Origin: an uncultured Solirubrobacterales bacterium
GTDB taxonomy: Bacteria; Actinomycetota; Thermoleophilia; Solirubrobacterales; 70-9
Assembly: GCA_963745305.1 (NCBI GenBank)
Contig: CAVUWL010000001.1
Span: forward strand, 32,278 to 96,277
Direction of reading: 5' to 3'
DNA: 64,000 bases
In this document: positions 16,517-53,708 of the stretch, in pieces
Layout of the letters: each line of letters begins with the position of its first letter
Position numbering within the stretch: the first letter of the stretch is position 1
Made by a program: the position numbers and the translations under genes
Notes under the pieces: model-generated
Databases searched by the model: none
Seen by the model: only the letters and a program-made list of their open reading frames with translations
What the model was told of the DNA's origin: nothing

Positions 16517-16684
16517 ACATGCCTCAGTTTCCGTGACCGTTTCGTCCCTCGACGCGTCGCGGGGGACCACCGAGTCCGCCTCGTCCCTCGCTCCAAGGGC
16601 TACCCACTCCTCCCTGCCCATCTACCTGGCTCGGTGGGCAGGGAGGAGTGGGGGAGACGGCTTCGCCGCCAGCGGAGCCCCCGG

Positions 16685-19376: not shown

Positions 19377-19470
19377 GAGCCCAACTATGAGTCTTCGCCA
19401 ACCCCACCACGCCGCCACCGCTGAGCTAGCAACCGCAAGCCGCGGCGCAGTCACCCGTAGGGCGCAGCGA

Positions 19471-19606
19471 GGCGGAGCGAGCAAGCAGTCGCAATCTGAC
19501 TCTTCTGCGCCGCGAGCGAAGCCGAAGCATTTGTCGCTCGGCCGAGGCCGAGCGACAGCGAGCGCCTCGACGGCGGTCCCGGCTCACAATCTCATTAGGT
19601 CGGCAG
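19471..19606. repeat. dispersed intergenic repeat (unit 1)
   Basis: 19471..19530 resembles 24233..24295 (GCGAGCAAGCAGTCGC(A/G)ATCTGA...). 19531..19606 resembles 15806..15880 (GGCCGAGGCCGAGC...CCGGCTCACAAT.TC.T.AGGTCGGCAG). Confidence 0.7.
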
Positions 19607-19679
19607 TAAGCGCTCCGTCGACCAACCACGCTCCACGGACCACCCCCCACACCCCGCCCCTCACCACCGGAGCCCGCGC

Positions 19680-24399: not shown

Positions 24400-27329
24400 T
24401 CGCCACCCGCCGGCACTCACTCGCGCGGCCAGTCGTCCGCCGCTCTGCGTCCTGCGCCGTGCTGGGCACGCTCCTCCTCGCGTCGCCAGCAATGGCCAGC
24501 ACCTCCGATCCACTCCTTCTCCGCCCTACCCTCCACCACCCAGGCCGGCGGCCACCCCGACATCGACTTCGAGTTCGCCCTCTCCAGCTCACCAGTCGCA
24601 GTCCCCGACCCCTGCGCCTGCGACGACGCCACGAACGTCACCGTCCACCTCCCCGCCGGCTTCATCGGCAACCCCCACGCCACCCCCCAATGCGCCATCG
24701 CCGACTTCGCCGCCGACCACTGTCCCGTCGACTCCCAGCTCGGCATCGCCGAAGTCGGGATCGCTTCCGATGTCGCGGCAGGGCCCGGAATCTTCGCTCG
24801 CTCTTCGTCGCCCCCGTCTACAACCTCATCCCCCCTCCCGACCAGCCCGCCCTCCTCGGCTTCAAGAGCGGCCTCGTCGACACCCCCACCTTCGAGGTCA
24901 TCAGCGCCCGCACCAGACGCCGACTACGGCCTCGACGTCGACGGTCACCGACATCGACCACTTCTTCCCCCTCGTCCGCTTCGCCCAGCGTCACCTGGGG
25001 CGTTCCCGCCGCCCCGATCCACGACTACCTCCGCTTCGGCCTCGGCGAGCAGTCGATAGCACTCGGTTCCATTGGCGGCAGACAACCCGAATCGCTGCTC
25101 TGCGACGCCAACGGCAACCGAGCACCGACGATCCCGCCACGGCTACCAGCTCTGTGCGAATCCTCGGCCCCGCCGCCCTCGCCGGAGGCAGCGAAGGAAC
25201 TGGGGCGGCCCCGGCTTCCCGGTCTCCTCCAACAGCCCCGAAGACCCCCTTCCTCCAGAACCCCACCACCTGCGGCCTCGCCTCCCTCTCCACCTCCCTC
25301 GACGTCCTCTCCTACGACGGCGGCGAAACCCACGCCGACTCCACCTGGCCGCCCACCACCGACTGCGCCCAGCTCACCTTCAACCCCTCCCAGGCGATCG
25401 ACCCGACCACCGACCGCCGCCGACAGTCCCTCCGGCGCCGAATTCCGCCTCACCGTCCCCCAGTTCGAGAGCCCCGAAGTCCCCTCGCCCTCTGAGCTCA
25501 GCGCCGCCGACGTCACCCTCCCCGAGGCTTCTCCCTCGCCCCCAACGTCACCAACGGCAAGACCACCTGCTCTGAAGCCCAGTCGCGCTTCGGCACCACC
25601 GAAGAAGCCCAGTGCCCCGAAGACTCCAAGATCGGCACGATCTCCGTCGAAACCCCCGTCCTCCCCGGCGTCCTCCCCGGCGCCGTCTACCTCGGCGAAC
25701 CCAAGCCCGGCAACCGCTTCCGCATGATCCTCGCCTTCAACGGCTTCGGCGTCCACGTCAAGCTGCCCGGCACCGTCACCCCCGACCCGGTGACCGGCCA
25801 GATCCACATCGACTTCCAGAACCTCCCCCAGGCCCCCTTCGCCTACTTCAACCTCCACTTCTTCGGCTCCGAGCGCGGCCCCCTCGACACCCCCACCCAG
25901 TGCGGCACCTACGAAGTCTCCAACGAATGGACCCCCTGGGACTCCGCCCTCCCCGACCAGACCTCCCGCCAGTTCTTCAACGTCGACCGAAGGCCCGAAC
26001 GGCACCCCCTGCCCGAACGGCCCCCGCCCCTTCCACCCCGCCTTCCAGGCCGCCTCCGCCTCCAACACCGCCGCCGCCCACACCGCCTTCTCCCTCGACC
26101 TCACCCGCGAAGACGGCGAACAGAACCTCAGCTCCCTGAAGCGTCACCACCCCGCCCGGCTTCGCCGCCACCCTCAAGGGCGTCTCCTACTGCCCCGAGG
26201 CCGCGATCGCCGCCGCCGCCCTCGAAACCCACACCGGCCTCGCCGAGCAGGCCAGCCCCAGCTGCCCCGCCTCCAGCCTACGTCGGCGAACTCACCGCCG
26301 GCGCCGGCCCCGGCACCCACCCCCTCTACCTCCCCGGCAAGGTCTACCTCGCCGGCCCCTACCAGGGCGCCCCGCTCAGCTTCGTCTTCATCACCCCCGC
26401 CGTCTCCGGCGGCTATGACCTCGGCAACGTCGTCGTCCGCGAAGGCCTCGACGTCAACCCCGAAACCGCCCAGGTCACCGCCGTCGGCGCCCCGCTGCCC
26501 CAGATCTTCCAGGGCATCCCCCTCCGCCTCCGCCAGATCTTCGTCAACCTCAACCGCCCGAACTTCGCCCTCAACCCGACCAACTGCGACCCCCTCGAAG
26601 TCAAGGCCGAAGTCTTCGGCACCGAAGGCGCCGTCTCCACCTCCTCCGAGCACTTCCAGGTCGCCAACTGCGCCTCCCTCTCCTTCGCCCCCAAGCTCAC
26701 CACTCGAGCTCTCCGGCTCCACCAAGCGCACCGGCAACCCGGCCCTGCAGGCGACCGTCACCTACCCCAGGGCGGCCCCAACGCCAACATCGCCCGCACC
26801 TCGGTCACCCTGCCCCCCACCGAGCTCCTCGACAACGCCCACATCAACGACCCCTGCACCCGGGTCCAGTTCGCCGCCAATCGCACTGCCCGCCGGCTCG
26901 CTCCTCGGCTATCGCCAAGGCCGAAACCCCGCTGCTCGAAAAGCCCCTCGAAGGCCCGGTCTACCTGCGCGCCACCGGTCGGCAACAAAGCTCCCCGACC
27001 TCGTCGCCGCCCTCAACGGCCAGATCGACATCAACCTCGACGGCCGCGTCGACATCCGTCCACGGCACGGCTCCGCACCACCTTCGACACCGTCCCCGAC
27101 GCCCCCGTCTCCAAGCTTCACCCTCAACCTCGACGGCGGCAACAAGGGCCTCCTCGAAAACACGACCAACCTCTGCTCGGCCACCCGTGCACGTCAACGT
27201 CCAGATGACTGGCCAAAACGGCAAGACGGCCGACCAGAACCCGATCCTCCAAACCCCCTGCGGCAAGAAGCACCACAAGCGCGCCAAGCTCGATCGAGCT
27301 TGGCGCGCCACCGGGGAGGGGGTCGCTGA
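24400..27329 (+). pseudogene. QAGGHPD-motif secreted protein, type A (unit 1), heavily frameshifted
   Basis: LPSTTQAGGHPDIDFEF (CAG..GAC at 24541..24561). FIGNPHATPQCAIADFAADHCPVDSQLGIAEV. Later blocks are spread over ORFs 24316.., 24356.., 24459.., 25724.., 26415.. (VYLGEPKPGNRFRMILAFNGFGVHVKLPGTVTPDPVTGQIHIDFQNLPQAPFAYFNLHFFGSERGPLDTP; GIPLRLRQIFVNLNRPNFALNPTNC). Tail TPCGKKHHKRAKLDRAW. The homologous stop TGA 27327..27329 is out of frame after a G-run at 27313..27322. Confidence 0.75.
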
Positions 27330-27440
27330 TGGGCGCCAAGCTAAAGTTCGCCACTGCCCGTGCCAAGCTCCGGCGCAGCCGGGAGTGGGGGAGGGGTGTG
27401 TCTTCAGTCCCATCCACCGCAGCGGCCCAGTCGCCGATAG

Positions 27441-27545
27441 TAAGTCCAGAGATCGCCTCGCCCCGTACTAGCGCGAAGCGCGGAGCAGGACGCCAAGGGT
27501 TTCCTGAGCGGTGGCGCCATTCCCCAGTGGCAACGGACGTGCCCC
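27441..27545. repeat. dispersed repeat inside the 5' extension of the giant ORF
   Basis: TAGTAAGTCCAGAGATCGCCTCGCCCCGTACTAGCGCGAAGCGCGGAGCAGG... aligns by eye over about 100 nt with 35716..35820 (…CGCCCGTACTAGCGCGAAGCGCGGGTCAGG…). Confidence 0.7.
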
Positions 27546-27628
27546 GAGCCCAAGCGAGGGAGCGTCACCAATTGGTTCTTCGTGACCGAGCGAAGATCAC
27601 GCTCTGGGCGCGGAACAGGCGCCGGGCT

Positions 27629-30600
27629 ATGTCGGCCGCCAGCGTTGTGGCTGTCGTAGCGGGGACCCTCCTCCTCGCCACGCCAGCGCTTGCGCTGACC
27701 GTGACCACATCCCTCCCCACCCGCTCCGGAACCGCCGCCACCCTCAACGGCGTTGTCGATCCCCAGGGCGTCGAACTCAAATCGGGGGCCGCGGGCTGCC
27801 GCATCGAATGGGGCAAAACCGAAGCCTACGGCGAAGTAGCCCCTTGTAACTTTCTCACCGAAGTGAACGGAGCGGACTTCACTCCCAAAGGCATTGTCCC
27901 CACCGGCCTGGAATCCGGCGACGCTGTCGCTGAAATCACCGGCCTCGAACTGGGCCATACCTACCACTACCGCCTCGCGGCCGCCAACGCCACTGAAGCC
28001 AAGACGGGCGCCGACCAGTCCTTCATTGCTGGCTTTGGGCACGCCTTTTCGACTTCCTTCTCCGGTTCCGGCCCCACCACCCTCACCAACCCCACCGCCG
28101 TCGCCGTCGACGAATCCAGCGGCGACGTCTACGTCACCAACTCCCCTGTGAATGAGCTCCAGACCCTCACCGTCGGCGCCACCGCCACCGGCGACCTCAC
28201 CAAAGCCTCCACCGAAGTGACCGGCCTCCACCTATCGGCAGGTGAACTCGCCGAAGGCGCCAGCATCGAAGGCGAAGGCATCCCCCTCCACACCACGGTC
28301 CTCGCCGTCAACGAAACCGAACACAAGCTCACTCTCTCCAAGCCAGCCACCACCACCGCCACCACCGTCCCCCTCGCGGTTACGCCCAACGGCGGCACCT
28401 TCACCCTCACCTTCAAGGGCCAGACCACCAACCCTATCCACTTTCCCGCCTCGAGCGTCGTCGTGCAAAACGAACTTGAGGCACTCTCCACCCTCGGCCC
28501 GAAAAGCGTCAGCATCACCGAACCAGGCCAAAACTCGCGCGGCCCCTATGCGGTCGAATTTGTAGGCAAGCTTGCCGGTTCCTCACAGCCCTCGATCGCC
28601 GTCGACCCCTCCGCCCTCACCGCCGGCCCCCACACCGCCCAGGTTGCCGTCGCCCGCCCCGGCAGCTCCACCGCCGACGTCGAGAAGTTCTCCCCCACCG
28701 GCGAATTCCTCCTCATGATCGGCCGCGAAGTGAACCGCAAGGCGGTCGAAAGCCACGGCACCGAAGCCGAACAGGACGTCTGCGCCGCCGAACCTGGAGA
28801 AGCCGAACCTGGCGAAGACTGCCAGCCCGGCGCCCCCACCACCGCTCCCGGTGGTTTCACCGACCCCGCTCTTCTCGCCGTCGACAACTCCGCTCTCGAC
28901 CACTCCACCGGCGACCTCTACGTCGGCGATCGCCTCACCGGCGCTGGTAGCGGCGACATCCAGAAATTCGGCCCCGAAGGCCACCTCATCACTACCTGGG
29001 GCGACTCCGGCCTCCTCGACGGCTCCACCGACCCCGAAGGCGGCTTCGCAACCCCTGGCACAGATGAAGGCCTCAGCGGCCTCGCCGTCGACCCCTCTGG
29101 TCGCCTCTTTGCCACCGCCGAAAAACGCTATTCCGAGTTCGACCCCTCCGGCGCCTTCCTCGCCGGCACCCCCTTCCCCACCGGAATTGCGAGCCTCGCC
29201 GTCGACTCTTCCGGCCATCTCTATCTCAGCGAGACCAGGGAAGGGGGGGCACTCGGCAAGTGGTCCGCACAGGGCACCCGCATCGGCACTCTCGTCAACA
29301 ATTTCGCCGGCACCCCCACCAGCCTTGCCATCGACCCCGTCACTCGCGACCTCTTCGCCCTCTACGGCGACCGCGTCAAGCGCTTCGCCGGCTCCTGCGA
29401 CAACTTCCAGGCCCCCTGCACTCCCCTCGAAACCTTCGGTGAAGGCCAGCTCTCCGGCCCCGGGAACCTCGCCCTCGACGCCTCCTCCGGCGCCGTCTAC
29501 GTCGCCGACACCGGCAACCACCGCGTCGCCGCCTTCACCGCCGCCCCCTACCTCCCCCGCGCCGCCGCCGCCGCCGCCCCCAAGGCCTCCACCGCCGAGA
29601 CACTCACCGGCAACGCCGACCCCGCCGGCGCCCCTCCCATCGAAGCCTGCGCCTTCCAGTACGCTCCCGTCTCTGCCTTCAACGAAGTCCAGAACCTTAC
29701 CCTCCACGGCGCCACCGGCGGCACCTTCTCCCTCCTCACTTACTCCTCCGAAGACCGTAGATTCGAACAAGAGCACGAAGACACCACACTAGCACTCCCC
29801 TACAATGCTCCCGCCCAGCATGTCGCCGCTGCGAACGAATCCACCGCGAATATTGGCAAGGGCAATCTTTCCGTCACCGGCCCTCCCGGCGGTCCCTTCC
29901 GTATCGAATTCGTCGGTCGCTTCGCCCACCATCGCAACGCTCTGCTGGTCGTCAATTCCTCCTCCAACCTCACCCCACCCACAGCCACCACCGAAGTCCT
30001 CCGCCAGACCGAAGGCGACGCCGCCTGGGGCACCGCCCCCACTTCCGCATGCGAACCCCTCCCTTCACCTCAATTCTCCACCGCCACCCCCGTTACCGCC
30101 CAGGCGACCGGCCTTCAGCCCGGCACCGCCTACTTCTTCCGCCTCCTCGCCGAAGACAAAAACGGCCCCGCCCAGAGCTACGAAGAAAACGAATTCACCA
30201 CCCTCCCCCTCGCCCCCACCGTCGGTGCCACCTCGGCCTCTGCCGTCCACGCCGACACCGCCCAGATCGCCACCGAGATCGACCCCGGCGGCGGCGAAGC
30301 CGCCTACCACACGCACTACTATCTCGAATACGTCACCCAAAAACACTTCGAAGAAGAAGAATTCACCGGCGCCGCCCGCAGCCCCGAACTCGACGCCGGC
30401 GGCGCCCATACCCCCCAGAGCCTCACCGTCTCCCTCAGCGCTCTGGACCAGAACACTACCTACCACTACCGCGCCATCGCCTCCAACGAATGCGAACTCG
30501 AAAAGCAATGCCTGGTGCCGGGAGCCGCCCACACCTTCACCACCCTGCCCTCCCCTGAACAGATCCACGACACCTGCCCCAACGCCCACGTCCGCCAGCA

Positions 30601-33600
30601 GACCGGCTCAGCTCTCCTCCTCGACTGCCGCGCCTACGAGCTCGTCTCCGCCGCCAACGCGGGTGGCTATGACGTCGAGTCCACCCTGATCGAAGGCCAG
30701 TCCCCCTTCGCCGGCTACCCGCAGGCCTCCGGCCGCGTCCTCTACGGCGTCCACGGCGGCGGCATCCCCGGCACCGATCACCCCACCGACCGCGGCGTCG
30801 ACCCCTACCTCGCCACCCGCACCGAAAACGGCTGGAGTACCGAATACGTCGGCATCCCCTCCAACGCCACCCCCTCGACCGCCCCCTTTGCCTCCACCTT
30901 GCTCGAAGCCGATCAGGGCCTCGGCGCCTTCTCCTTCGGCGGCCCCGAAATCTGCCAGCCCTGCTTCGCCGACGGCTCCACCGGCATCCCCCTCCGCAAC
31001 TCAGACGGCAACCTCGTCCAGGGCATGGCCGGCTCTGAAGACCCCGGCCCCTCCGCCGAACCGGCCGGTTTCATCGCCAAGCACTTCTCCGCCGACGGCA
31101 CCCACTTCCTCTTCGGCTCGACCGCCAAATTCGAGACTGACGGCAACGAAGGCCAGATCTCGATCTATGACCGTAACCTCGCTACCGGCGTTACCCACGT
31201 CGTCTCCAAGGCCCCCGGCGGCGGCAGCCTGCCCTGTGAAATCAACTGCCAAAGCAACGGCATCGGCGTCCTCGACGTCTCCGCCGACGGCTCCCACATC
31301 CTCCTCGGCCAGCTCGTCTCCGTGAAAGAAGGGATCAAGCGCTGGCGCCTCTACATGAACGTCGGCGACTCCGGCGAAACCACCGCGCTCACCCCCGGCG
31401 CCACCGAAGGCGTCCTCTTCGACGGCATGACCGCAGACGGCTCCAAGGTCTTCTTCTCCTCCCCACAGCACCTCACCAATGAAGACACCTCCCACACCGG
31501 CCCCGCCATCTTCCTCTGGCAAGAAGGCCACCTGCTCGCCCTCATCACCAAGGGCAACTCCGGCTCCTGCGATCCGCTCGCCAATTCAGCCCACGAACAC
31601 TGGAATGTGAGCGGATCTGAAAAAACCTGCGGCGCGCTCGCGATCGGCGGCGGCGGCGGCGTCTCCTCCGCCACCGGCGCCGTCTACTTCCTCTCCCCCG
31701 AGCTCCTCGCCGGCACCGAAGAACCCAAAGATGGCGTCCTGAACGCTCCCAACCTCTACCGCGCCGGCCCCGAAGACGGCTACGCCACCCACTTCGTCGC
31801 CACCCTCGAATCGGCGCTTAACGGCCCCCAGCCGCCCCGCTCCGGCCGCTCCTTCCTCCGCGAATTCGGCTTCTTCACCAAGGCCACCGGCCTCGCCGTC
31901 GATCGCGCCAGCGGCGACGTCTACGTCCTCGACCTCGGCGGCGGTGAAAACGAACTGCCGGCCGGCGTCGCCAAGTTCGACTCCTCCGGCAACCTAATCC
32001 AAGGCTGGGGCTCCCACGGCCACCTCTCCGGCTCCTCCGCCACCGGCACCGGCGAACTCACTGCCGGCTCCAACACGATTACCAAAGTCACCACCGCCTC
32101 CGGCGCCTTCAGCCCCGGCCAGGAGATATCCGCCCCCGGCATCCCCCCCGAAACCACCATCGCCGCCTGCTCTCCCTCTTGCGAAGCCCCGACCTCCCTC
32201 GAAATTTCCCAGGAAGCGACCGCCTCCGGGCCGGCGCAGCTCAGCGCCAAGCAGCCCTTCTCGGAGCTGCCCTCCTCCGGCTCGCCCACCCAGCTCGCCG
32301 TCGATCAGTCCAGCGGCGACCTCTACGTCCCCGACCTCCTCCACTTCGCCGTCGACGTCTTCGACTCCTCTGGCAACTACCTCACCCAGATCGGCGGCAT
32401 CTTCGGCCCCACCGCGCTCGCCGTCGACCCCTCCAACGGCGATCTCTACGTCGCCACCATCTTCGGCGGCATTGACGTCTTCGAACCCTCCGCAGGCTCC
32501 CCCCCGACCTTCACCCCGAACCCCGAATTGTCCATCCCCGCTGCCCACTCGACCACCGGCCTCGCCGTCGCTCCCAACGGCACCGTCTACGTCGCCAACG
32601 GCTCCGAAACCGCGGTTTATAAAAAAGGCCCCACTGCCTATGAAAAAGTCTCCACCCTCGACCCCGAACCCTCCCAGGGCGTCGCCATCGACCCCACCAC
32701 CGGCTACGTCTCCGTCGACGAGGGAAATCGCGTCGTCCAGTTCGACTCCTCCGGTCACCAGCTCGCCACCTTCAGCTCTGAAGCCTTCTCCGGATCGGTC
32801 GGCCTCGCCCTCGACCCCGGCGGCGACCTCTACGCCACCACCGCGGGAGGCGCCAAGCTCGCCGCCTTCGGTCGCTTCGGCCTGCCCCCCGGCCCCGCGA
32901 TCGACAACCCCGCCGTCATCGACTCCGTCACCGAACCCGAAGCCCGCCACACCGCCGACTTCCAACTCACCCCATCCGGCGAATTCGCCGCCTTCCCCTC
33001 CTCCCTCGCCCTCGCTGGTGCTGAAGAAGAACCCGCTGGCCACGATGTCCTCTACCGCTACGATGCCGCCGCCAAAAAGCTCACCTGCGTCTCCTGCACC
33101 CCCACCGGCGCTCCCTCCACCGGCGACTCCAACCTCGCCCCCGACGGCCTCAGCCTCACCGAAGACGGCCGCGTCTTCTTCGACTCCACCGACCGCCTCG
33201 CCGCCGCCGATACCGACAATCGCCGCGACGCCTATGAGTGGGAGGCGGCCGGGACCGGCAACTGCACCGCGCAAAGCCCCTCCTTCAGCGTCCGCACCGG
33301 CGCCTGCCTAGCCCTCATCTCCGCCGGCACTTCCACCTTCGACTCCGGCCTCCTCGGCGTCTCCGCCGACGGCACCGACGCCTACTTCTTCACCCGCGAC
33401 TCCCTCGTCCCCCAGGACAAAAACGGCCCCACCATGAAGATCTACGACGCCCGCGAAGGCGGCGGCTTCCCCTACCTCCCCCCGCGCGAAGACTGCAAGG
33501 CCTCCGACGAGTGCCACGGCGCCGCCAGCCCGCTTCCTCCACCGATCGAAGCCGGCTCAGAAGCCGGCTCCCCCCACAACGCCGAAGAAGAACCCAAACC

Positions 33601-33736
33601 GTGCAAGAAGAGCTTCGTCAAAAAGCACGGCAAGTGTGTCCAGCGCCACCCCCACAAGCACCGCCACCACGTGCGCCATGAACGCAGCAAGAAGCACCGA
33701 GCCAAGCACCACAGGAAAGGATCGGTGCACTCTTGA
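27629..33736 (+). CDS. giant secreted beta-propeller protein 2 (unit 1), intact; stop codon supplied by the group II intron
   Basis: Uninterrupted ORF 27329..33736. Signal peptide MSAASVVAVVAGTLLLATPALA starts at ATG 27629. FN3-like modules (WGKTEAYG...GHTYHYRLAAANA; TAYFFRLLAEDKNG; TTYHYRAIASNE). NHL blades (GDVYVTNS, GDLYVGDR, GAVYVADTGNHRVAAF, GDVYVLDLGG, GDLYVPDL, GDLYVATI). TCPNAHVRQQTGSALLLDCRAYELVS. PD40-like blades (SADGTHFLFGS, SADGSHILLG, TADGSKVFFSS, SADGTDAYFFT). CKASDECHG. PCKKSFVKKHGKCVQRHPHKHRHH. Exon 1 ends at 33670. Confidence 0.85.
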   Translation: MSAASVVAVVAGTLLLATPALALTVTTSLPTRSGTAATLNGVVDPQGVELKSGAAGCRIEWGKTEAYGEVAPCNFLTEVNGADFTPKGIVPTGLESGDAVAEITGLELGHTYHYRLAAANATEAKTGADQSFIAGFGHAFSTSFSGSGPTTLTNPTAVAVDESSGDVYVTNSPVNELQTLTVGATATGDLTKASTEVTGLHLSAGELAEGASIEGEGIPLHTTVLAVNETEHKLTLSKPATTTATTVPLAVTPNGGTFTLTFKGQTTNPIHFPASSVVVQNELEALSTLGPKSVSITEPGQNSRGPYAVEFVGKLAGSSQPSIAVDPSALTAGPHTAQVAVARPGSSTADVEKFSPTGEFLLMIGREVNRKAVESHGTEAEQDVCAAEPGEAEPGEDCQPGAPTTAPGGFTDPALLAVDNSALDHSTGDLYVGDRLTGAGSGDIQKFGPEGHLITTWGDSGLLDGSTDPEGGFATPGTDEGLSGLAVDPSGRLFATAEKRYSEFDPSGAFLAGTPFPTGIASLAVDSSGHLYLSETREGGALGKWSAQGTRIGTLVNNFAGTPTSLAIDPVTRDLFALYGDRVKRFAGSCDNFQAPCTPLETFGEGQLSGPGNLALDASSGAVYVADTGNHRVAAFTAAPYLPRAAAAAAPKASTAETLTGNADPAGAPPIEACAFQYAPVSAFNEVQNLTLHGATGGTFSLLTYSSEDRRFEQEHEDTTLALPYNAPAQHVAAANESTANIGKGNLSVTGPPGGPFRIEFVGRFAHHRNALLVVNSSSNLTPPTATTEVLRQTEGDAAWGTAPTSACEPLPSPQFSTATPVTAQATGLQPGTAYFFRLLAEDKNGPAQSYEENEFTTLPLAPTVGATSASAVHADTAQIATEIDPGGGEAAYHTHYYLEYVTQKHFEEEEFTGAARSPELDAGGAHTPQSLTVSLSALDQNTTYHYRAIASNECELEKQCLVPGAAHTFTTLPSPEQIHDTCPNAHVRQQTGSALLLDCRAYELVSAANAGGYDVESTLIEGQSPFAGYPQASGRVLYGVHGGGIPGTDHPTDRGVDPYLATRTENGWSTEYVGIPSNATPSTAPFASTLLEADQGLGAFSFGGPEICQPCFADGSTGIPLRNSDGNLVQGMAGSEDPGPSAEPAGFIAKHFSADGTHFLFGSTAKFETDGNEGQISIYDRNLATGVTHVVSKAPGGGSLPCEINCQSNGIGVLDVSADGSHILLGQLVSVKEGIKRWRLYMNVGDSGETTALTPGATEGVLFDGMTADGSKVFFSSPQHLTNEDTSHTGPAIFLWQEGHLLALITKGNSGSCDPLANSAHEHWNVSGSEKTCGALAIGGGGGVSSATGAVYFLSPELLAGTEEPKDGVLNAPNLYRAGPEDGYATHFVATLESALNGPQPPRSGRSFLREFGFFTKATGLAVDRASGDVYVLDLGGGENELPAGVAKFDSSGNLIQGWGSHGHLSGSSATGTGELTAGSNTITKVTTASGAFSPGQEISAPGIPPETTIAACSPSCEAPTSLEISQEATASGPAQLSAKQPFSELPSSGSPTQLAVDQSSGDLYVPDLLHFAVDVFDSSGNYLTQIGGIFGPTALAVDPSNGDLYVATIFGGIDVFEPSAGSPPTFTPNPELSIPAAHSTTGLAVAPNGTVYVANGSETAVYKKGPTAYEKVSTLDPEPSQGVAIDPTTGYVSVDEGNRVVQFDSSGHQLATFSSEAFSGSVGLALDPGGDLYATTAGGAKLAAFGRFGLPPGPAIDNPAVIDSVTEPEARHTADFQLTPSGEFAAFPSSLALAGAEEEPAGHDVLYRYDAAAKKLTCVSCTPTGAPSTGDSNLAPDGLSLTEDGRVFFDSTDRLAAADTDNRRDAYEWEAAGTGNCTAQSPSFSVRTGACLALISAGTSTFDSGLLGVSADGTDAYFFTRDSLVPQDKNGPTMKIYDAREGGGFPYLPPREDCKASDECHGAASPLPPPIEAGSEAGSPHNAEEEPKPCKKSFVKKHGKCVQRHPHKHRHHVRHERSKKHRAKHHRKGSVHS

Positions 33737-35626
33737 TGCGCCGCTGTACAGAAGATGGAGGCAGGCCCTCCGTGGTCGCCGTGCAGGCGGAGATCACAAA
33801 CCACCCCAAGGTGCGGCGGTCAAGAGCCGCTCGTGCTGAGCGTTGCGGGAAAAGGCGTGCCGACGAGCACGTCAGGTATGACCCGATGAAGACGAGCGAG
33901 AGCGAACCACTGCTGAAGTGTCGAAATGTGTTAGACGACATCGAAACCAGGCCATGTGGTGGCGCCTGGGATGAGCCTGGGATGGCACCTGTTTACTGCC
34001 CAGGCGGTGTCCGGCATGTAGGTGGCGTGAGCGCGGGTCAGGCTCCTGTACGGAACATGGGAACCTGTCGTCTCGCGGGAGAGCGGCTCATGGTCGAAGA
34101 TCTCCGGCCGCTCATCCCAGGGAAGGCCCCAAGCGGCAGAAACCGCAAGGGACCACATCCTGATGTGAGGCACAGGGGCGGATCGCCCGGTAGTAGTAAT
34201 GAAGGCTCCGTAATGGGGCTGGAGCGAAGCGGGCGGGCCATCCAGGCAAGGACAGCGGTCAACCACGAGGTGAGTGGGAGGACCCGGTGACCGAGCCAAA
34301 GTCAAAGGTCAAGAAGTCGTTTTGCATCGACAAGAGGGTGGTCTGGAAGGCGTGGAAGCAAGTCAAGGCCAACCAGGGCGCTCCAGGTGTTGACGAGGAG
34401 TCGGTTGCGGAGTTCGAGAGGAGCCTGGAAGGGAACCTCTACGTGCTGTGGAACCGGATGTCCTCGGGTGCCTACATGCCACCGCCTGTGAAGGCGGTGC
34501 AGATACCGAAGAAGAGTGGGCGAGGGTCAAGAACCCTCGGTGTGCCCACAGTCGCAGACAGGGTCGCGCAGACGGTCGCCAAGCTGCACTTGGAGCCCGA
34601 GGTGGAGCCAGTGTTCCACCCCGACTCCTACGGCTACCGACCGAACCGCTCGGCCCTTGACGCGGTGGGGACATGCCGGGAGCGGTGTTGGAGATATGAC
34701 TGGGTTCTAGATTTGGACCTGAAGTCATTTTTCGACTCCGTCGATCACAAGCTCATCCTGAAAGCGGTAGCCGCCCACACCGATGAGCGGTGGGTGCTCC
34801 TCTACGTCGAGCGCTGGCTGAAGGCCCCGCTCGACAATGGGGACGGCAACCTGGAAGCGCGTGATCGCGGCACCCCTCAAGGGTCCGCGATCTCCCCGGT
34901 GCTCGCCAACATCTATCTCCACTATGCGTTCGATACATGGATGGCCAGGGAGTTCCCGGCCGTTCCCTTCGAGCGCTATGCAGACGATGTTGTCGTACAC
35001 ACCAAAAGTGAGCGCCAGGCGCGGTTTGTGCTCGGCGAGATCAAGAAGCGGATGGCGGACTGTCACCTGGAGCTAAACCAGGAGAAGAGCCGCATTGTGT
35101 ACTGCAAGGACGCAAACCGCACCGGCTCTCACGAGCACGAGCGGTTCGACTTCCTCGGGTACACGTTTCGACACCGGCAAGCCCGCAACGGGCGGGGCGA
35201 GCTGTTTCGTAGCTTCTCCCCAGCAGTCAGTGACGAAGCCGCGAAAGCGATACGCCGGACGATCCGCAAATGGAGGATTCACCTATGGAGCGGGACACCA
35301 CTCACGGACCTCGCACGGGAGCAGGGCGCGATCGTGCGAGGCTGGATCAACTACTACGGGCATTTCCACCCGTCCGAGCTGGCCAGGTCTCTCCTGCGCA
35401 TCGACGAGTACCTGATGCGCTGGGCGATGCGGAAGTTCAAGCGACTGAAAGGCCGCCGCGAGCGGGCCTGGGAGTTCCTGGCGGACGTGCATGCACGTCA
35501 ACCGGAGCTCTTTGCTCACTGGCGGTTGGTACGACCCTACGACCGGATGGTGGGAGCCGTATGACGGGAGACTGTCACGTGCGGTTCTGCGAGAGCCGGG
35601 GGGCGAAATCCTCCCTGCCACTCACC
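33671..35626 (+). mobile_element. group II intron, copy 1 (1956 nt)
   Basis: Begins GTGCGCC (GUGYG consensus). Canonical 34-nt domain V GAGCCGTATGACGGGAGACTGTCACGTGCGGTTC at 35554..35587. Domain-VI-like hairpin with bulged A (CCTCCCTGCCACTCACC) ends at 35626. RT/maturase ORF sits in the domain IV position. Similarity to copy 2 (51628..53583, same length) starts and stops exactly at these borders. Borders are +/-1 nt because of a shared C. Confidence 0.85.
34287..35564 (+). CDS. group II intron reverse transcriptase/maturase (no endonuclease domain)
   Basis: RT blocks GAPGVDEESV, RTLGVPTVADRVAQ, YGYRPNRSALDA, LDLDLKSFFDSVDH, GTPQGSAISPVLANIYL, FERYADDVVVH. Maturase X domain GWINYYGH. The ORF ends inside domain V. 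Confidence 0.9.
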   Translation: MTEPKSKVKKSFCIDKRVVWKAWKQVKANQGAPGVDEESVAEFERSLEGNLYVLWNRMSSGAYMPPPVKAVQIPKKSGRGSRTLGVPTVADRVAQTVAKLHLEPEVEPVFHPDSYGYRPNRSALDAVGTCRERCWRYDWVLDLDLKSFFDSVDHKLILKAVAAHTDERWVLLYVERWLKAPLDNGDGNLEARDRGTPQGSAISPVLANIYLHYAFDTWMAREFPAVPFERYADDVVVHTKSERQARFVLGEIKKRMADCHLELNQEKSRIVYCKDANRTGSHEHERFDFLGYTFRHRQARNGRGELFRSFSPAVSDEAAKAIRRTIRKWRIHLWSGTPLTDLAREQGAIVRGWINYYGHFHPSELARSLLRIDEYLMRWAMRKFKRLKGRRERAWEFLADVHARQPELFAHWRLVRPYDRMVGAV

Positions 35627-35662
35627 AAACGAGCCAACCACAAGCGCGGAGGTAAGAAATGA
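35627..35662 (+). other. predicted 3' exon of giant gene 2 (KRANHKRGGKK-stop)
   Basis: Joining 33670 to 35627 keeps the frame and gives ...RHPHKHRHH-KRANHKRGGKK*. The uninterrupted paralog tail at 61720..61765 reads RHHRRANPHRGGHK* across the same junction (GGCACCAC-AGGCGAGCCAACC vs CGCCACCAC|AAACGAGCCAACC). Confidence 0.65.
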
Positions 35663-35715
35663 TCTTCCGCCGACACAATCACGTCCGCGCTGCCAAGACT
35701 GAGCAGTCCTCGCTA

Positions 35716-35860
35716 GTCCGTCCCTCGAAACGCTCGCCCGTACTAGCGCGAAGCGCGGGTCAGGCGGTCCAAGGTTCCCAGGGCGTTGGCGCAATTCCCC
35801 GACGACAGCGGAGGCGAAGCCGAGCAGTCGTCGGTTTATGTAGATGGGCCAGCGCTCAGG
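35716..35860. repeat. dispersed intergenic repeat (unit 1)
   Basis: Related to 27441..27545 and, at its 3' end, to 24296..24330. Confidence 0.7.
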
Positions 35861-35934
35861 GCGGTCCCAGTCACGAACTGATTCTTCCTGGGGCCGCCCT
35901 GAGCGCCCCGCCGACCACCTCACACACGGCCAAG

Positions 35935-38900
35935 CGTGGCCGAATCTTCCCCCGCCGGCACCACCTACCCGCCCGAGTCGCCGCCGCTGTTTTGTCCGCC
36001 GCCGCCATCGTGGTGGCTGGCGCAGTCTGGCTGCCCGCCGCCGCCCAGGCTTCAGAGGCAGTTACCTCCTTCAAGACCACCCTCGTCGAACCGGTCCCCC
36101 CGCTCGAAAATGACGCGGCGACTGGCACTGTCGAGGCTGCGCCCACCTCCGAAAGCTTCACCCTCAAAGAACCCAGTGGATCTAAGCTCACCGTCAAAGT
36201 CTCGCCCTCGACGATCTACCGCGAGTTTGGCGCCCCCAATCCCACCCTCGGCAACGTCGGTGCCGGCGACTTCGTCGAAGTTGTCGGCCCCGGCGAAGGC
36301 ATTGAACTGACAGCGACCAAAGTCCAGATCGCCGATCCGACTGCCGGCATCGTCCAAGCTGCGCCCAGCGGCGAAAGCTTCACCATCGAAACGCTCACTG
36401 GATCCACCGACACGGTCGAAGTCTCGCCCTCGACCACCTACGTCAAGGCCAAGCCCGAACCGGGCGAAACAAGCCCAACCCTGGCTGACGTCGGGGTCGG
36501 CGACTACGTCGGGATCGTCGGCCCTCTCTCCGGGCACACCGTCACCGCGACCGGGGTGGGGATCTCCGTCCCCCAGGCCGGCGGCCACCCCGACCTCACC
36601 ACCTCCTTCGCCCTCGCCGAACCCGGCCAACCCGAAGCCGCCCAGAACGTCATCTTCAACGCCCCCACCGGCGTCTTCGGCAACCCCCGCGCGATCACCC
36701 AGTGCCCCACCTCCGAATTCGCCCTCGACGCAGTGCCCCCCCGACTCCCAGGCCGGCCTGATCACCCTCCACGCCAACTACGCAGGCAACCCCGACTACC
36801 TCCTCGGCACCGCCCCGATCTTCTCGATCGTCCCCTCCGAAGGGGAAACCGCCCGCTTCGCCTTCGTCGTCCCCGTCCTCGACATCCCGATCGCGATCCC
36901 CGTTCAGGTCCGCACCACCGCCGACTACGGCCTCCGCTTCACCGTCAAAGACATCACCCAGCTCACCCCCCTCGCCTCCGCCAGGATGACCTTCTGGGGC
37001 TTCCCCGCCGAATCGAACCCACACGCTTCGAACGCTTCCCCAAAGGGACCCCGGGGAACCCCACCGGCTGCCCCGGAGAAGAAGGCACCGCCTGCCTCGC
37101 AAAGGCCCACCGATGCCAGCATCTTCCCCCAGCCGCTCACCGACAACCCCACCACCTGCACCGGGCGCCAGCTTACCGCCACCCTCGAAGTCGAAACCTA
37201 CGCCGACCCCATCCATCACCCGGCGACCGAAGCCACCTACCCCACGATCGAAGGCTGCGAAAACGAGGTCTTCAACCCCGTCCTCCAGGCCTCCCCGACC
37301 ACCAACCAGACCGACTCCGCCTCGGGCTTGAACGTCGACCTCAAATCCCCCCAGTTCCTCACCTACGCCTCCGAGCCCTCCGAGATCCGCTCCGCCACCG
37401 TCACCCTGCCCGAAGGCTTCACCATCAACCCCGACGCCGCCGACGGCCAGACCGAATGCACCGAATCGCAGGCAAACTTCAGCTCACGAAGGCCCCGCCG
37501 AATGCCCCGACACCGCCAAGATCGGCACCTTCTCGATCGGCACCCCCGCCCTCCCCGAACGCCTCGAAGGCTCCGTCTATCATCGGCGAACCCAAGCCCG
37601 GCGACCAGTACCGGCTCTTCATGACCGCCTCTGGCTTCGGCATGAACATCAAGCTCGTCGGCTCGGTCATTCCCAATCCGAAGACCGGCCAGCTCATCGC
37701 CGAATTCCCCAACCTTCCCCAGGCTCCCTTCGAAGACTTCCAGCTCCACCTCTTCTCCGGCGAACGCGCCCTCATGGCCACCCCGACCGCCTGCACGATC
37801 TACCCCGTCGAGCGCCGAGTTCTACCCCTGGAACGCCACCCTCGCCGAACAGACCTCCAGCCAGATCTTCAGCCTCGAATCGGGTCCCCACGGCTCCCAG
37901 TGCCCGGGCCAGGTCCGCCCCTTCATCCCAACCCTCGAAGCCGGCACCTCCAACGCCACCGCCGGCGCCTTCTCCAACTTCGCCCTCAAGCTGAACCGCG
38001 AAGACGGCGACCAGGACCTCGGCCATATCAACTTCACCATGCCCCCGGGCCTCACCGCCAACCTGCACGGCGTCACCTACTGCTCCGACGCGGCGATCGC
38101 CCAGCCGCGGCGAACACTCCGGGCCGCACCGAGCAGGCCGACCCAAGCTGCCCGGCCTCTAGCGAAATCGGCACCTCAAACGTCGCCGCCGGCCCCGGCA
38201 CCCACCCCTTCCACGCCACCGGCAAGATCTACTTGGCCGGCCCCTTCCAGGGCGCCCCGCTCAGCCTCGTGGTGGTCACCCCTGCCTTGGCCGGCCCCTA
38301 TGACTACGGCACCGTCGTCGTCCGCGTCGCCCTCCACATCGACCCCCTCGACGCCCACGTCATCGCCGACTCCCAGGCGGTCCCCGAGATCATCGGCGGC
38401 ATCCCGCTGCGCATCCGCTCGATCCAGGTCAACATCAATAAGCCGAACTTCATGATCAACCCGACCAACTGCTCCGAATTTCACACCACCTCCGAAGGGG
38501 TCGGGGACCAGGGCACAGCGGTCAGCTTCACCTCCCCCTTCATCGCGGTCAACTGCGACACCCTGCCCTTTGCGCCGAAGATGTCGATCACCCAGCTCGG
38601 CGGTCACAAGGCCACCGCTCGCAGCAAGGACCCCAGCCTCGCGATCGAACTCAATACCACGAGCGGGCGATGCCAACATCAAATCGCTCACCGTCACCCT
38701 GCCCAAAGCCTTCGAGATCGACCAGCGCCACCTCGGCAACATCTGCGACCGGGCAGAACTCGCCTCGGACCAGTGCGCCGGCCGCCAGCCGATCGGCGAA
38801 GCGACCACCAACACGCCGCTGCTCGAAGCCCCCCTCAAGGGCCCTGTCTATGCGGTCTCGGGCTTCGGCGACTCTTGCCCCACCTCGCCTTCATCCTCGC

Positions 38901-39214
38901 CGGCCAGGTCACCCTGATGCCCGAGGCCGAATCCTCCTCGGTTCAACACGGCCGCCTGAAAACCGTCGTCCCGGTCATCCCCGACGCCCCGATCGGCCAC
39001 TTCCGCTTCACCCTCTTCGGCGGCTCCCAGGGCTACCTCTCAAACACCCAGAGCCTCTGCAGCGCTCCGACCGCTCTCCACGATCGAATTCAACGCCCAA
39101 AACGGCAAGAAGCTGACCCAACAGGTAAAGACCAAGACCGCGTGTAAGTACGAAGTCGAAGAGATCAAAGCACGGCACCAAGCGTCGTCGTCGCTAGTAC
39201 CTCGGGAGCCTTGA
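35935..39214 (+). pseudogene. QAGGHPD-motif secreted protein, type B with DUF5666-like N-terminal repeats (unit 1), heavily frameshifted
   Basis: Signal-peptide-like ARVAAAVLSAAAIVVAGAVWLPAAAQA. Three repeats of the type GTVEAAPTSESFTLKEPSGSKLTVKVSPSTIY...GDFVEVVG. PQAGGHPDLTTSF (36574..36594). VFGNPRAITQC. First shift at 36725-36735 (GACGCAGTGCCCCCCC vs AATGAATGCCCACCC in the paralog). Later blocks lie in ORFs 36986.., 37xxx, 38039.., 38570... True end ...STIEFNAQNGKKLTQQVKTKTACKYEVEEIKARHQASSSLVPREP at TGA 39212..39214. Start codon not resolved. Confidence 0.75.
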
Positions 39215-47297: not shown

Positions 47298-47394
47298 GAG
47301 CCAACCAGTGAGCCTTCGCCGATTCCGCTCTTCCCTCACCCCCAGGAATTGCCCTGCCCCATCCGGCCGCGCGGGGTTGGCGGACCAACTGCCT

Positions 47395-53640: not shown

Positions 53641-53708
53641 GCGCAGAGCAAAGAAGCAATCGCCATCTATCTCATTTTGGATATCGAGCCCGCCACAAAT
53701 TATCCATT

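Follow-up and report, generated by a model that had tools for sequence, protein, structure and literature searches.

A group II intron in the basic C-terminal tail codons of a giant Solirubrobacterales gene, with a candidate surrogate tail

Background

Group II introns of bacteria are generally unusual inside gene codons (PMC4424553), and transposases or non-coding DNA make up most of the hosts listed for class D introns (PMC3552965, Table S1). The closest described systems to the locus studied here are RmInt1 of Sinorhizobium meliloti (class D, IIB3, En-less) and its relatives. Their intron-encoded protein (IEP) has only RT and X domains in about 420 aa and carries the class D C-terminal LF[A/V]HW motif. 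RmInt1 has a IIB-type layout, with IBS2 at -9 to -13, IBS1 at -1 to -7 and a single-base EBS3/IBS3 pair with IBS3 at +1 (PMC4075523). These introns spread via retargeting of the EBS loops. The intron described below, W1, resembles them in all of these respects, including the apparent mode of spread of its lineage. However, RmInt1-type introns target IS elements, transposase genes, other introns and non-coding DNA, whereas the W1 lineage occupies the final codons of large host ORFs; outgroup loci of the lineage have RmInt1-type sites as well.

We analysed a window of 64,000 nucleotides from an uncultured Solirubrobacterales bacterium (GenBank assembly GCA_963745305.1, contig CAVUWL010000001.1). 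Features are collected in Table 1.

Table 1 Features of the two intron copies, their hosts and the empty sites (window positions)
Feature	Position	Strand	Details
Empty site in paralog	24053..24074	+	CACAAGCGC/AAGAGCAAGCGCC, junction 24061/24062; near-perfect match to W2 exons
5' exon, giant NHL-repeat protein gene	27329..33670	+	ORF opens 27329; likely true start near 27629 at MSAASVVAVVAGTLLLATPALA
IBS2 of W1	33657..33661	+	AGCAC, positions -14..-10; pairs with GUGUU of EBS2 loop
IBS1 of W1	33663..33670	+	GCCACCAC, positions -8..-1; 8 contiguous Watson-Crick pairs with GUGGUGGC of EBS1 loop
Group II intron copy W1	33671..35626	+	1956 nt, class D/IIB3-like, En-less
In-frame 5' segment of W1, proposed surrogate basic tail	33671..33736	+	VRHERSKKHRAKHHRKGSVHS + TGA, first 66 bases
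Domain I (D1) core, conserved	33757..33877	+	Rfam RF01999, 105 bits, E=1.4e-20
EBS2 loop of W1	33925..33933	+	AAUGUGUUA, hairpin GUGUCG...CGACAU
EBS1 loop of W1	33953..33963	+	CAUGUGGUGGC, hairpin CCAGGC...GCCUGG
EBS3 of W1	34019	+	U, partner is IBS3 A35627
RT/maturase (IEP) of W1	34287..35564	+	425 aa, GTG start, upstream GGGAGG, YADD motif
Domain V (DV) of W1	35554..35587	+	Rfam match, folding
Domain VI (DVI) of W1	35591..35626	+	Bulged branch-point A35620, then 3' terminal ACC
3' exon of W1	35627..35662	+	KRANHKRGGKK + TGA; contains GGAGG Shine-Dalgarno
Downstream gene	35659..39147	+	1162 aa
Intron copy W2	51628..53583	+	1956 nt, 90% identical to W1, in basic tail of paralog
W2 in-frame peptide	51628..51693	+	
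W2 IEP	52244..53521	+	GTG start at 52244
W2 DV	53511..53544	+	
3' exon of W2	53584..53640	+	KSRRHPRRAAHHDGRAAR + TGA; overlaps next gene's ATG at 53637
Empty site in unit-1-like paralog	61722..61742	+	GGCACCAC/AGGCGAGCCAACC, junction 61729/61730

Results and discussion

Identity and class of the intron

W1 is almost certainly a complete En-less group II intron with the borders given in Table 1. Its 5' end reads GTGCG (GUGCG in the RNA). An Rfam scan matched RF01999 (group-II-D1D4-2) well above its gathering score of 36 bits, and RF00029 (DV/DVI) at 35552..35626 with 56.9 bits (gathering score 40). With E-values of 1e-20 and 1e-8, these matches are far from what chance would produce. DVI folds with a bulged C35619/A35620, a basal helix of 3 bp and a 3' tail ACC. 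Profile searches of the IEP identified RVT_1 and GIIM domains and a TIGR04416 match at 408 bits; the same domain searches found no nuclease (D/En) domain. A previous, sequence-only reading had described an element with a GTGCG start, a DV, a DVI with a bulged A and an En-less RT. All of these occur where it had placed them, and the comparison with covariance models that it had proposed agrees.

Full-length comparison of the IEP with a 419-aa IEP of S. meliloti gave 58% identity. The intron of the latter, an RmInt1 relative, also matches RF01999 and likewise has the 3' end CCACUCACC. The published class D motif is LX3AX3PXLF[V/A]HW (PMC4615759), and the corresponding W1 sequence, LADVHARQPELFAHW, matches at 7 of 8 positions. 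W1 is an intact endonuclease-less intron, probably active, of the RmInt1 type and class D/IIB3-like, where the class placement has IEP similarity and the motif as its basis, not a phylogeny with reference IEPs.

The host is a giant surface-protein gene, and W1 lies in its last codons. The ORF is uninterrupted for 2114 codons, has NHL, fn3 and Pur_ac_phosph_N matches, and ends on a codon boundary at the intron. The host TGA (35660..35662) overlaps the ATG of the next ORF in an ATGA. We found no Pfam match in this downstream gene; its translational coupling to the host is predicted only after splicing.

Exon recognition and empty sites

In an own-versus-cross test, EBS1 pairing scored 6.0 at an intron's own site and 3.76 at other sites (P=1.5e-11), and EBS2 pairing 4.57 and 3.15 (P=1.2e-7). 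The EBS1, EBS2 and EBS3 pairings covary in about 25 relatives. We assigned EBS3 to the D1 column that covaries best with the first base of the 3' exon (19 of 26 Watson-Crick and a further 3 wobble, with more added by metagenome copies); all four Watson-Crick types occur among relatives. We infer that W1 splices in vivo. The removal of W1 would join ...RHPHKHRHH to KRANHKRGGKK and the stop in frame, as the sequence-only reading had claimed, and the borders that it proposed are backed by the covarying pairings, the empty paralogs and a branch A at -7.

Support for the borders also comes from homologous tails that lack the intron, such as ...HHRRKKANHQRGGGK. The paralog that had been cited as uninterrupted, at 61722..61742, indeed aligns to the spliced host without a gap, with 27 of 36 bases identical up to the common TGA by manual count. 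This gene copy appears frameshifted. The other empty site, at 24061/24062, is better, and neither it nor W2 was part of the earlier reading. The EBS loops of W2 are retargeted relative to those of W1. The W2 host gene and the unit-3 paralog appear fragmented, so some host copies may be pseudogenes, or the assembly may contain indel errors.

A lineage residing in basic tails

W1 belongs to an intron lineage of soil actinobacteria. Its closest relatives all come from Solirubrobacterales, and nearly all lie in the K/R/H-rich tails of long ORFs, at a distance of 0-50 codons from the stop. We counted 16 distinct positions in at least five tail types, all in codon phase 0. In the 26 copies that dwell in tails and whose 5' border was mapped, the sole long upstream ORF is in phase 0 (its length is at most 798 codons where limited by the flanks, about 2150 in the window and only 38 on the short contig of L085), and the host stop is 4-49 codons downstream of the intron. 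New targets resemble old ones, and strings of K/R/H codons read as such in only one frame. Phase 0 could therefore be inherited passively, and the naive probability of (1/3)^15 overstates the case.

Two comparisons point to movement within this niche. W1 and L007 occupy orthologous tails, with insertions 6 nt apart and a different EBS1 in each. W2 and L040 are 96% identical and occur in different genes that have CACAAGCGC/AAG in common. Judging from such comparisons, the lineage moves among basic C-terminal tails by altering its EBS loops, and insertion into tail codons appears to be its rule rather than an accident. The location of W1 had previously been called unusual. This is correct for bacterial group II introns in general and for class D, but not for the W1 lineage.

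A candidate surrogate tail

When introns of this lineage are read in phase 0, their first 13-33 codons specify a basic peptide followed by a stop. In W1, the stop lies about 20 nt ahead of the D1 core start at 33757. Since the stop comes before the ribozyme core, unspliced mRNA would still give a basic tail, ...HRHH-VRHERSKKHRAKHHRKGSVHS. The median net charge of the peptide is +8 in tail-dwelling copies versus +2 in copies at other sites (P about 5e-6), and the K/R/H fraction is 0.62 versus 0.30 (P about 1e-6). Within the W1 clade, indels in the coding linker measure +9, +12, +9 and -9 nt, and K-to-R replacements in the linker occur via multi-base changes, e.g. AAG to CGT.

In some sub-lineages, the intron peptides reproduce motifs of the host tail, namely the second Cys and CEKxARxxYGP. 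L090 and L092 encode ...KCEKEARA[RK]YGPVRKK, keep the 11-residue Cys-Cys spacing of the family, and differ within this motif by three synonymous changes and one conservative change. L009, L010 and L087 have C/VRHAR[KR]EFG where the host consensus is C/EKQARKKYG. L018, L019 and L091 have VRHEC, in which a CGC-to-TGC change supplies the displaced second Cys. Such motif-level mimicry occurs only in sub-lineages other than that of W1; in W1, the displaced tail resembles the intron peptide no more than other tails do (rank 17 of 26).

The W1 peptide segment overlaps a variable hairpin with the stem CACCGAGCC/GGAUCGGUG. The HRA and GSV stem codons are complementary strands, and the hairpin dictates part of the peptide. 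The purine-rich loop yields K/R codons almost by default.

Taken together, a class D intron in tail codons, belonging to a lineage specialised for basic tails and carrying a surrogate tail, is the likely explanation. For its adaptive part, we lean, with some hesitation, towards the intron carrying a surrogate host tail; we infer that the peptide is translated and was selected in this role. W1 would have reverse-spliced into the K/R/H-codon tail of the NHL-repeat gene, on the sense strand, with the 5' exon held via EBS1/IBS1 (33953-63 with 33663-70) and EBS2/IBS2 (33925-33 with 33657-61), and the 3' exon via U34019 and A35627. Branching at A35620 and the joining of 33670 to 35627 would yield ...HRHH-KRANHKRGGKK and restore the ATGA coupling. 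In unspliced mRNA, translation would run into the intron and terminate just ahead of the ribozyme core, after the basic VRHERSKKHRAKHHRKGSVHS. If so, a basic C-terminus may persist on the host protein with or without splicing of its mRNA.

Alternative explanations

It is possible, though we think it improbable, that W1 is an ordinary, selfish member of class D without any adaptation directed at its host, and that its purine-rich D1 hairpin yields the basic peptide as a side effect. Basic tails are low-complexity, alike in DNA and rich in near-cognate EBS targets; insertions near a stop would be tolerated, and phase 0 would pass from target to target. The common 12-nt target of W2 and L040 in unrelated genes fits this account, as does the CA[CT]CAC/AA[AG]CGAG present at both W1 and L004. 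The peptide overlaps a conserved hairpin, and non-tail copies also start somewhat basic, e.g. VRHERRRKGIG. RmInt1 relatives are known to spread through divergence of their target specificity (PMC4615759; PMC4181065). However, selfishness leaves unexplained the CGC-to-TGC change, the CEKEARAxYGP module with its exact Cys spacing, the GAA-to-GCG change yielding VRHAR where the site follows C/E.QAR, the 3-nt periodicity of the linker indels, K-to-R changes by three-base substitutions, and the charge difference between tail and non-tail copies.

More doubtful is domestication as a regulator, in which the level of splicing would set the ratio of genomic to intron-encoded tails and toggle downstream coupling, comparable to the constitutive alternative splicing of C.te.I1. 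For both W1 and W2, the restored stop lies in an ATGA overlap with the next ORF, and a group II intron that diversifies the C-termini of surface proteins is a precedent (PMC3919590). The unspliced products of L090 and L092 are also closer to the family Cys spacing than the spliced products (11 versus 10 residues). Against regulation, the intron is sporadic and absent from most homologous tails: of 40 homologous protein tails from a protein database, only one has the intron-encoded ending. Moreover, the copies keep an intact mobile IEP, their positions vary even among orthologs (W1 and L007), and an Rfam scan of the window found no extra DV/DVI copies or shifted splice sites.

W1 and W2 have roughly equivalent positions in paralogous tails, as expected of an immobile relic inherited vertically since before the paralog duplication and kept only because it still splices. 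This is very unlikely: the introns are 90% identical but the host flanks only about 50%, and the paralogs most similar to the two hosts (75% and 67% identical) both lack an intron. The IEP ORFs are also unbroken, and other genomes carry almost identical copies at sites that differ (L015a/L016; W2/L040).

The sequence-only reading had also raised a 3' splice site one base earlier, at 35625/35626 (...CUCAC/C), which would give ...HRHH-QTSQPQARR and not restore the basic tail. Deletion of 33670..35625 and of 33671..35626 leaves identical DNA, so the paralog alone cannot tell the two borders apart; RNA evidence does. About 30 relatives end in ...CACTC[A/G][C/A]C followed by any base, and their similarity stops right there. 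W1/W2 identity starts precisely at GTGCG. With the 35626 border, the branch A35620 lies at -7, as does the branch A of Ll.LtrB. Although the earlier site would end in AC, which suits the common AY ending, and C35626 is nearly invariant and in principle a possible exon base, this site is scarcely credible: EBS3 tracks the base after CACC and not an invariant C, some relatives end in GAC, GCC, TCC or GCT, tandem copies at one locus meet as ...CACC/GTGCG..., the branch A would be at -6, the tails of the paralog and of homologs align with no extra C, and an equivalent shift in W2 would fuse the frame into the next gene.

Comparison with known systems

Compared with the RmInt1 type, the 5' hairpin region of the W1 lineage is expanded (about 54 versus about 30 nt), in-frame and basic-coding. 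C.te.I1 of Clostridium tetani, like W1, occupies the 3' end of a surface-protein gene, and the C-terminus encoded differs between spliced and unspliced mRNAs (PMC3919590). It has no IEP, splices at a 5' site displaced by 8 nt and uses four downstream DV/DVI copies (PMC3919590). By contrast, W1 is an ordinary mobile intron that has a single DV/DVI and a canonical 5' site, and the alternative C-terminus is encoded within the intron.

In 2003, Adamidi and colleagues (reference 138 in PMC4424553) reportedly described an Azotobacter vinelandii group II intron located at the stop codon of groEL. Like W1, it lies at the very 3' end of a coding gene within an operon but, unlike the W1 lineage, is a single case. 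To our knowledge, neither lineage-wide specialisation nor an intron-encoded replacement tail has been described for it. The yeast mitochondrial introns aI1 and aI2 have ORFs in frame with the upstream exon, and read-through expresses the intron's own RT/maturase. W1 resembles them in its in-frame reading from exon to intron, but what would be read is a short, host-like tail with a stop before the ribozyme core, and a separate Shine-Dalgarno sequence and start codon serve the W1 IEP.

Integrative elements entering the 3' end of tRNA or protein genes bring a replacement 3' end; they use DNA recombinases and carry a near-exact duplicate of the target. They are a conceptual analogue of W1, in that the insertion neutralises itself by supplying the displaced end of the gene. 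[quoted passage not shown]

Structure and host gene of the intron

W1, the intron copy in the basic tail of the giant NHL-repeat gene of unit 1 (units 0 to 3 are tandem paralogous genes for giant proteins), is a group II intron, as the sequence-only reading had correctly interpreted it. All the parts which that reading had named are present, namely a GTGCG start, a domain V, a domain VI with a bulged A and an RT/maturase without a nuclease domain. In a covariance-model check of W1, two Rfam group II families matched above their gathering scores (table below). The GUGCG at 33671 corresponds to the 5′ boundary motif GUGYG, which is kept in all relatives compared. Domain V has the expected form of a 34-nt hairpin with the AGC triad. 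In the fold of domain VI, C35619 and A35620 are bulged, the basal helix has 3 bp and the 3′ tail is ACC; the branch A35620 is at position −7, within the usual 7-8 nt of the 3′ end. The intron-encoded protein (IEP) of 425 amino acids is encoded within domain IV. It contains RVT_1 and GIIM domains, matches TIGR04416 (group II RT/maturase) with 408 bits and extends 31 residues past the GIIM match; a domain search of this protein found no nuclease or HNH domain. Given the intact catalytic elements and the matching pairs of intron (EBS) and exon (IBS) binding sites, we infer that W1 splices in vivo.

The loop of the 5′ hairpin of W1 repeats the IBS2-like AGCAC and the IBS1 CACCAC of the exon. This repeat could be due to chance (His codons) or be an internal decoy for EBS1 and EBS2.

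Features of the intron copies W1 and W2, empty sites, and peptides encoded by the intron in the host frame (slash, intron position)
Feature	Position	Strand	Evidence or sequence
W1 intron	33671..35626
W1 in-frame peptide, phase 0	33671..33736		VRHERSKKHRAKHHRKGSVHS, then stop
W1 5′-hairpin loop	33704..33712		AAGCACCAC
W1 domain I core (RF01999)	33757..33877		Rfam, 105 bits (gathering score 36)
EBS2 loop	33925..33933		partner at exon positions −14..−10
EBS1 loop	33953..33963
EBS3	34019		U
W1 IEP ORF	34287..35564	+	GTG start, GGGAGG upstream
W1 domains V and VI (RF00029)	35552..35626		Rfam, 56.9 bits (gathering score 40)
W1 domain V	35554..35587	+	Rfam match, fold
W2 intron	51628..53583		Rfam match; 90% identical to W1
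Empty site, third paralog (ends 24115)	24053..24074		CACAAGCGC/AAGAGCAAGCGCC
Empty site, unit 3	61722..61742		no intron
L020 in-frame peptide, phase 0			VRHERKKTHKKKKK, then stop
L018 in-frame peptide, phase 0			VRHECKKKPKTKHKSARKAARRKSRRS, then stop

The 5′ exon of W1 is an uninterrupted ORF of 2114 codons for an NHL-repeat protein, with a signal-peptide-like segment about 100 codons into the ORF, and its last codon is complete at 33670. Joining 33670 to 35627 does restore the tail in frame (...CKKSFVKKHGKCVQRHPHKHRHH/KRANHKRGGKK and stop), and the spliced junction would read CACCGCCACCAC/AAACGAGCC. The restored stop codon overlaps the ATG at 35659 of the following ORF (ATGA), with GGAGG 6 nt upstream of this ATG. 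An uninterrupted paralog had also been claimed, and the site in unit 3 indeed aligns without gaps to the spliced W1 sequence up to a shared TGA. Intron-less homologs of other genomes span the junction with ...HHRRKKANHQRGGGK and ...HKHKRAVHHKRGGHK.

The four paralogous units encode giant proteins with NHL, fn3 and InlB-B repeats and occupy 13.5-62 kb (ORFs 16634..24115, 27329..35662, 44862..53640 and 56591..61767). Only unit 1 is a single continuous ORF; units 0, 2 and 3 are split into overlapping ORFs, and either are pseudogenes or reflect indel errors in a long-read assembly. The tail of unit 3 is out of frame and 7 nt shorter than that of unit 1. Other, intron-less genes of the cluster with the same kind of C-terminal module (44862..47297 and 53637..56663) read ...CRNGFVKKNGRCVRKSKPRHHKKKH followed by stop and ...QNGKAANQNPVLSTPCAKKHQKRARLG..., respectively. 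The combination of a Cys pair and a polybasic tail is apparently an uncharacterised C-terminal module of secreted proteins in Solirubrobacterales. No Pfam or NCBIfam family covers this module, and the downstream proteins of 1162 and 1008 amino acids have no Pfam or NCBIfam match.

A second, retargeted copy

The window contains a second copy, W2, which the sequence-only reading leaves unmentioned in its note on W1. Identity between W1 and W2 begins exactly at GTGCG and stops at ...CACTCACCAA. W2 also splits a basic tail in phase 0 (...LRHRTKRHKR/KSRRHPRRAAHHDGRAAR, then a stop codon that overlaps the following ATG), and its spliced junction would read CACAAGCGC/AAGAGCAGG (51627/53584). The paralog ending at 24115 provides a better empty site than unit 3; its tail reads ...HHKRKSKRHNHRAA, and the counterpart in spliced W2 reads RHKRKSRRHPRRAA. 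The host flanks of W1 and W2 are only about 50% identical, and each is nearer to an empty paralog (75% and 67%). Given that the hosts are closer to empty paralogs than to each other, the intron spread after the gene duplications.

Exon recognition and borders

Of roughly 1,160 relatives, 160 loci were retrieved. For 40 intron copies, located at 39 of these loci, we mapped both borders, and at further loci the 5′ border alone. A comparison by alignment columns revealed two domain I hairpin loops that vary among copies, each fitting the copy's own 5′ exon. The EBS1 loop of W1 (GUGGUGGC) pairs with GCCACCAC and that of W2 (GCGCUU) with AAGCGC; both the EBS1 and EBS2 loops of W2 are retargeted to its own host exon. 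In W1, EBS1/IBS1 pairing comprises 8 bp and EBS2/IBS2 pairing 5 bp. Among 23 distinct sites, pairing with the own site exceeded pairing with other sites for both EBS1 (P=1.5e-11) and EBS2 (P=1.2e-7). The domain I column that pairs best with the first base of the 3′ exon is U34019 (EBS3), with U:A, G:C, A:U and C:G pairs among relatives. An IIA-type delta-delta′ pairing was rejected: the base 5′ of EBS1 fits position +1 in W1 (U:A) and not in W2 (G:A), and the EBS3 column is preferred.

It had been suspected that the 3′ splice site lies one base earlier. Several observations contradict such a shift: EBS3 covaries with the +1 base, similarity among copies stops at ...C[A/G][C/A]C with any base next, tandem copies at locus L015 are joined as CACC/GTGCG, the branch A is at −7, and the mapped border restores the frame of both tails.

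Head-to-tail tandem copies with the joint ...CACC/GTG... occur at L015 (2386..6289, a Solirubrobacterales MAG) and L081 (about 1..2811, an S. meliloti plasmid). The EBS1 of the downstream copy mismatches its “5′ exon”, i.e., the end of the upstream intron. At locus L085 (Ga0302325_10030895), the intron (116..2075) is flanked by a 39-nt direct repeat, AAAAGCAAGCGTAAGAGCAAGTCCAAAGCGAAAAAGTCT, of 13 basic codons. Its EBS3 (C) fits the G next to the second repeat; the base now adjacent to the intron is an A, which does not match. The repeat could be a duplication restoring the tail upstream of the intron, or an artefact of recombination or assembly.

A lineage found at gene ends

Among the loci retrieved, every close relative (at least about 70% IEP identity) is from a Solirubrobacterales MAG or a soil metagenome. 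With few exceptions, these introns are inserted in the sense strand at the extreme end of long ORFs, within tails rich in K, R and H, where 4-49 codons remain up to the stop. We counted 16 distinct positions. Six of these belong to the family with CKxGFVKKHGKC plus a basic tail, which includes the host of W1; in this family, W1 and the intron at L007 occupy orthologous tails 6 nt apart, each with its own EBS1. Another four lie in a tail family with ...QNG...TGCPK / LKAC-x11-CE.xARKKYGP. One position is the W2 site, and another, at L040, repeats the 12-mer of that site within a different gene (the ortholog of the window gene 53637..56663). The remaining four are at L001, L004, L082 and L085. 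A few copies have other gene-terminal positions: the one at L008 directly follows a stop codon, those at L005 and L006 lie upstream of start codons, and those at L084 and L088, as judged from the 3′ exon only, apparently lie directly before a stop codon.

All tail insertions are in phase 0. The naive probability of this, (1/3)^15, is only an upper bound on its significance, because phase is inheritable through target similarity. We found no report in the published literature of a lineage-wide specialisation for protein tails.

An in-frame peptide at the intron 5′ end

Conceptual translation of the intron in the host frame starts with V-R-H-E-R and runs through 13-33 codons, most of them for K, R or H; the stop at the end always lies ahead of the conserved domain I core. 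In the other frames, a stop follows after 3 codons (phase 1), or the frame is open deep into the ribozyme (phase 2). For copies in tails, the median net charge of the peptide is +8 and its K/R/H fraction 0.62, versus +2 and 0.30 for copies at other sites (P about 5e-6 and 1e-6). Linker indels are all multiples of three (+9, +12, +9 and −9 nt), and lysine is replaced by arginine via multi-base changes, e.g., AAG to CGT.

In three sub-lineages, the peptide resembles the host at the level of motifs. At L090 and L092 (site LKAC-xxx/), the intron encodes ...KCEKEARA[RK]YGPVRKK..., which reproduces the second cysteine of the host at the canonical 11-residue spacing, together with CE.xAR..YGP. Within this motif, only three synonymous changes and a single conservative one separate the two loci. 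At L009, L010 and L087 (site ...KC/), the intron starts with VRHAR[KR]EFG, and the host consensus is EKQARKKYG. At L018, L019 and L091 (site CKxG/), codon 5 is TGC, replacing the displaced cysteine.

The Cys-Cys spacing at L090 and L092 would be 10 residues in the spliced product and the family-typical 11 in the unspliced one, a hint that the unspliced form is perhaps the constrained one.

In Smith-Waterman comparisons of each intron peptide with its own displaced tail versus other tails, ranks were scattered: L020 and L087 ranked first, and W1 ranked 17 of 26. The similarity of the W1 peptide to its own tail is not above background, though HRAKHHRKG resembles KRANHKRGG. When the unspliced C-terminus served as query for homologs, only 40 short fragments were retrieved, which are not a census but also include uninterrupted tails. 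One of the 40 has an intron-encoded tail (the protein fragment P0003, ...KKPKRH-VRHERNKKHRAKHHRKGSVRS) and represents an extra insertion site.

Interpretation and significance

On the most economical reading, this is a mobile lineage of class D type that is adapted to basic C-terminal tails, moves from tail to tail by EBS change, and by splicing would restore the host tail and the coupling to the following gene; these parts of the reading are well supported. Spread by EBS change has been described for relatives of RmInt1 (PMC4615759).

In a further, proposed step of this reading, the in-frame peptide would act as a surrogate tail, so that even an unspliced message gives a protein with a basic C-terminus. 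The unspliced W1 product would contain ...HKHRHHVRHERSK..., with translation ending at 33734-36. For this step, which relies on predicted translation, we consider the chances even or slightly better. Several caveats apply. Phase 0 can be inherited passively, with new targets resembling old ones. The peptide is partly fixed by the RNA hairpin, in that HRA and GSV are encoded by complementary stem strands. K and R codons arise by default from a purine-rich loop. Finally, the peptide of W1 resembles its own displaced tail no more than background.

The surrogate-tail reading extends to a dual use of the ribozyme 5′ end (the first ~40-100 nt, in the variable domain-I hairpin region). This region would be an in-frame coding extension that replaces the basic tail, at the level of motifs in some sub-lineages. 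The host protein would no longer depend on splicing for its function, and this independence would let the intron colonise the ends of large surface-protein genes in Solirubrobacterales. We regard this proposal as evenly balanced. To our knowledge, no group II intron has previously been shown to carry a coding segment that mimics a host protein, and we found no report in the published literature of an intron-encoded stand-in for a displaced host C-terminus.

On the prevailing view, bacterial group II introns persist mostly by keeping out of host genes, and the question of how introns could settle within coding sequence is central to theories of how spliceosomal introns arose. This lineage apparently cancels the effect of its insertion by coding for a substitute tail. 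If true, this would be a new route to host tolerance, and a case of a ribozyme in which RNA structure and the coding of a host protein are superimposed. The naturally diverse EBS/IBS pairs are a resource for retargeting class D introns, and the intron is a marker for the uncharacterised module of Cys pair and polybasic C-terminus in Solirubrobacterales surface proteins.

Comparison with known introns

A group II intron reportedly occurs at the groEL stop codon in Azotobacter. As a rule, group II introns of bacteria are absent from host genes (PMC4424553), and C.te.I1, in an S-layer gene of C. tetani, is likewise an exception at a gene 3′ end (PMC3919590). The alternative-splicing layout of C.te.I1, with several downstream copies of domains V/VI and a shifted 5′ splice site, was rejected for the window copies: each has one domain V/VI, and IBS1 adjoins GUGCG, with no shifted 5′ site.

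More distant sampled relatives occupy typical class D sites (for comparison, see Table S1 of PMC3552965), namely the YADD codons in RT genes of other introns, the IS66 transposase motif TNNHAE/R and IS3 orfA (...LKKA/). Phase-1 insertions exactly after the YADD codons were seen at L031-L033, L081, L108, L110, L115, L137, L138, L154 and L158; judging by these loci, the YADD codons are a conserved homing site inside other introns. L006 and L010 contain twintrons (each about 1840..2620): domain I of the tail-type intron harbours a nested group II intron of a different type, which lacks an ORF, matches RF02003 (D1D4-4) and has its own domains V and VI.

Among RTs with solved structures, those of En-less IIC introns are closer to the IEP than LtrA or T.el4h. 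Class C (IIC) introns insert after a transcription terminator or attC site and have no EBS2 and a short domain I. This class was ruled out, because the intron lies within an ORF, EBS2/IBS2 is present and covaries, and the kinship of the IEP to IIC RTs is only distant. Recognition of the 3′ exon is IIB-type, by a single-base EBS3/IBS3 without a delta-delta′ pair beside EBS1. The layout of exon recognition is the same as that of RmInt1, with IBS2 at −9..−13, IBS1 at −1..−7 and IBS3 at +1 (PMC4075523). Full-length comparison of the IEP with a multi-copy 419-aa IEP of S. meliloti, which is in the RmInt1 size class, gives 58% identity, an indirect sign of class D placement; the corresponding S. meliloti intron also matches RF01999 and also ends with CCACUCACC. 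The C-terminal motif of class D is LX3AX3PXLF[V/A]HW (PMC4615759), and W1 has LADVHARQPELFAHW, with seven of the eight specified positions (the A is H in W1 and S in W2). Based on the likeness to S. meliloti and this motif, we file W1 as class D/IIB3-like. The intron itself adds a member to a known class; what is new is the niche of its lineage and the coding 5′ end.
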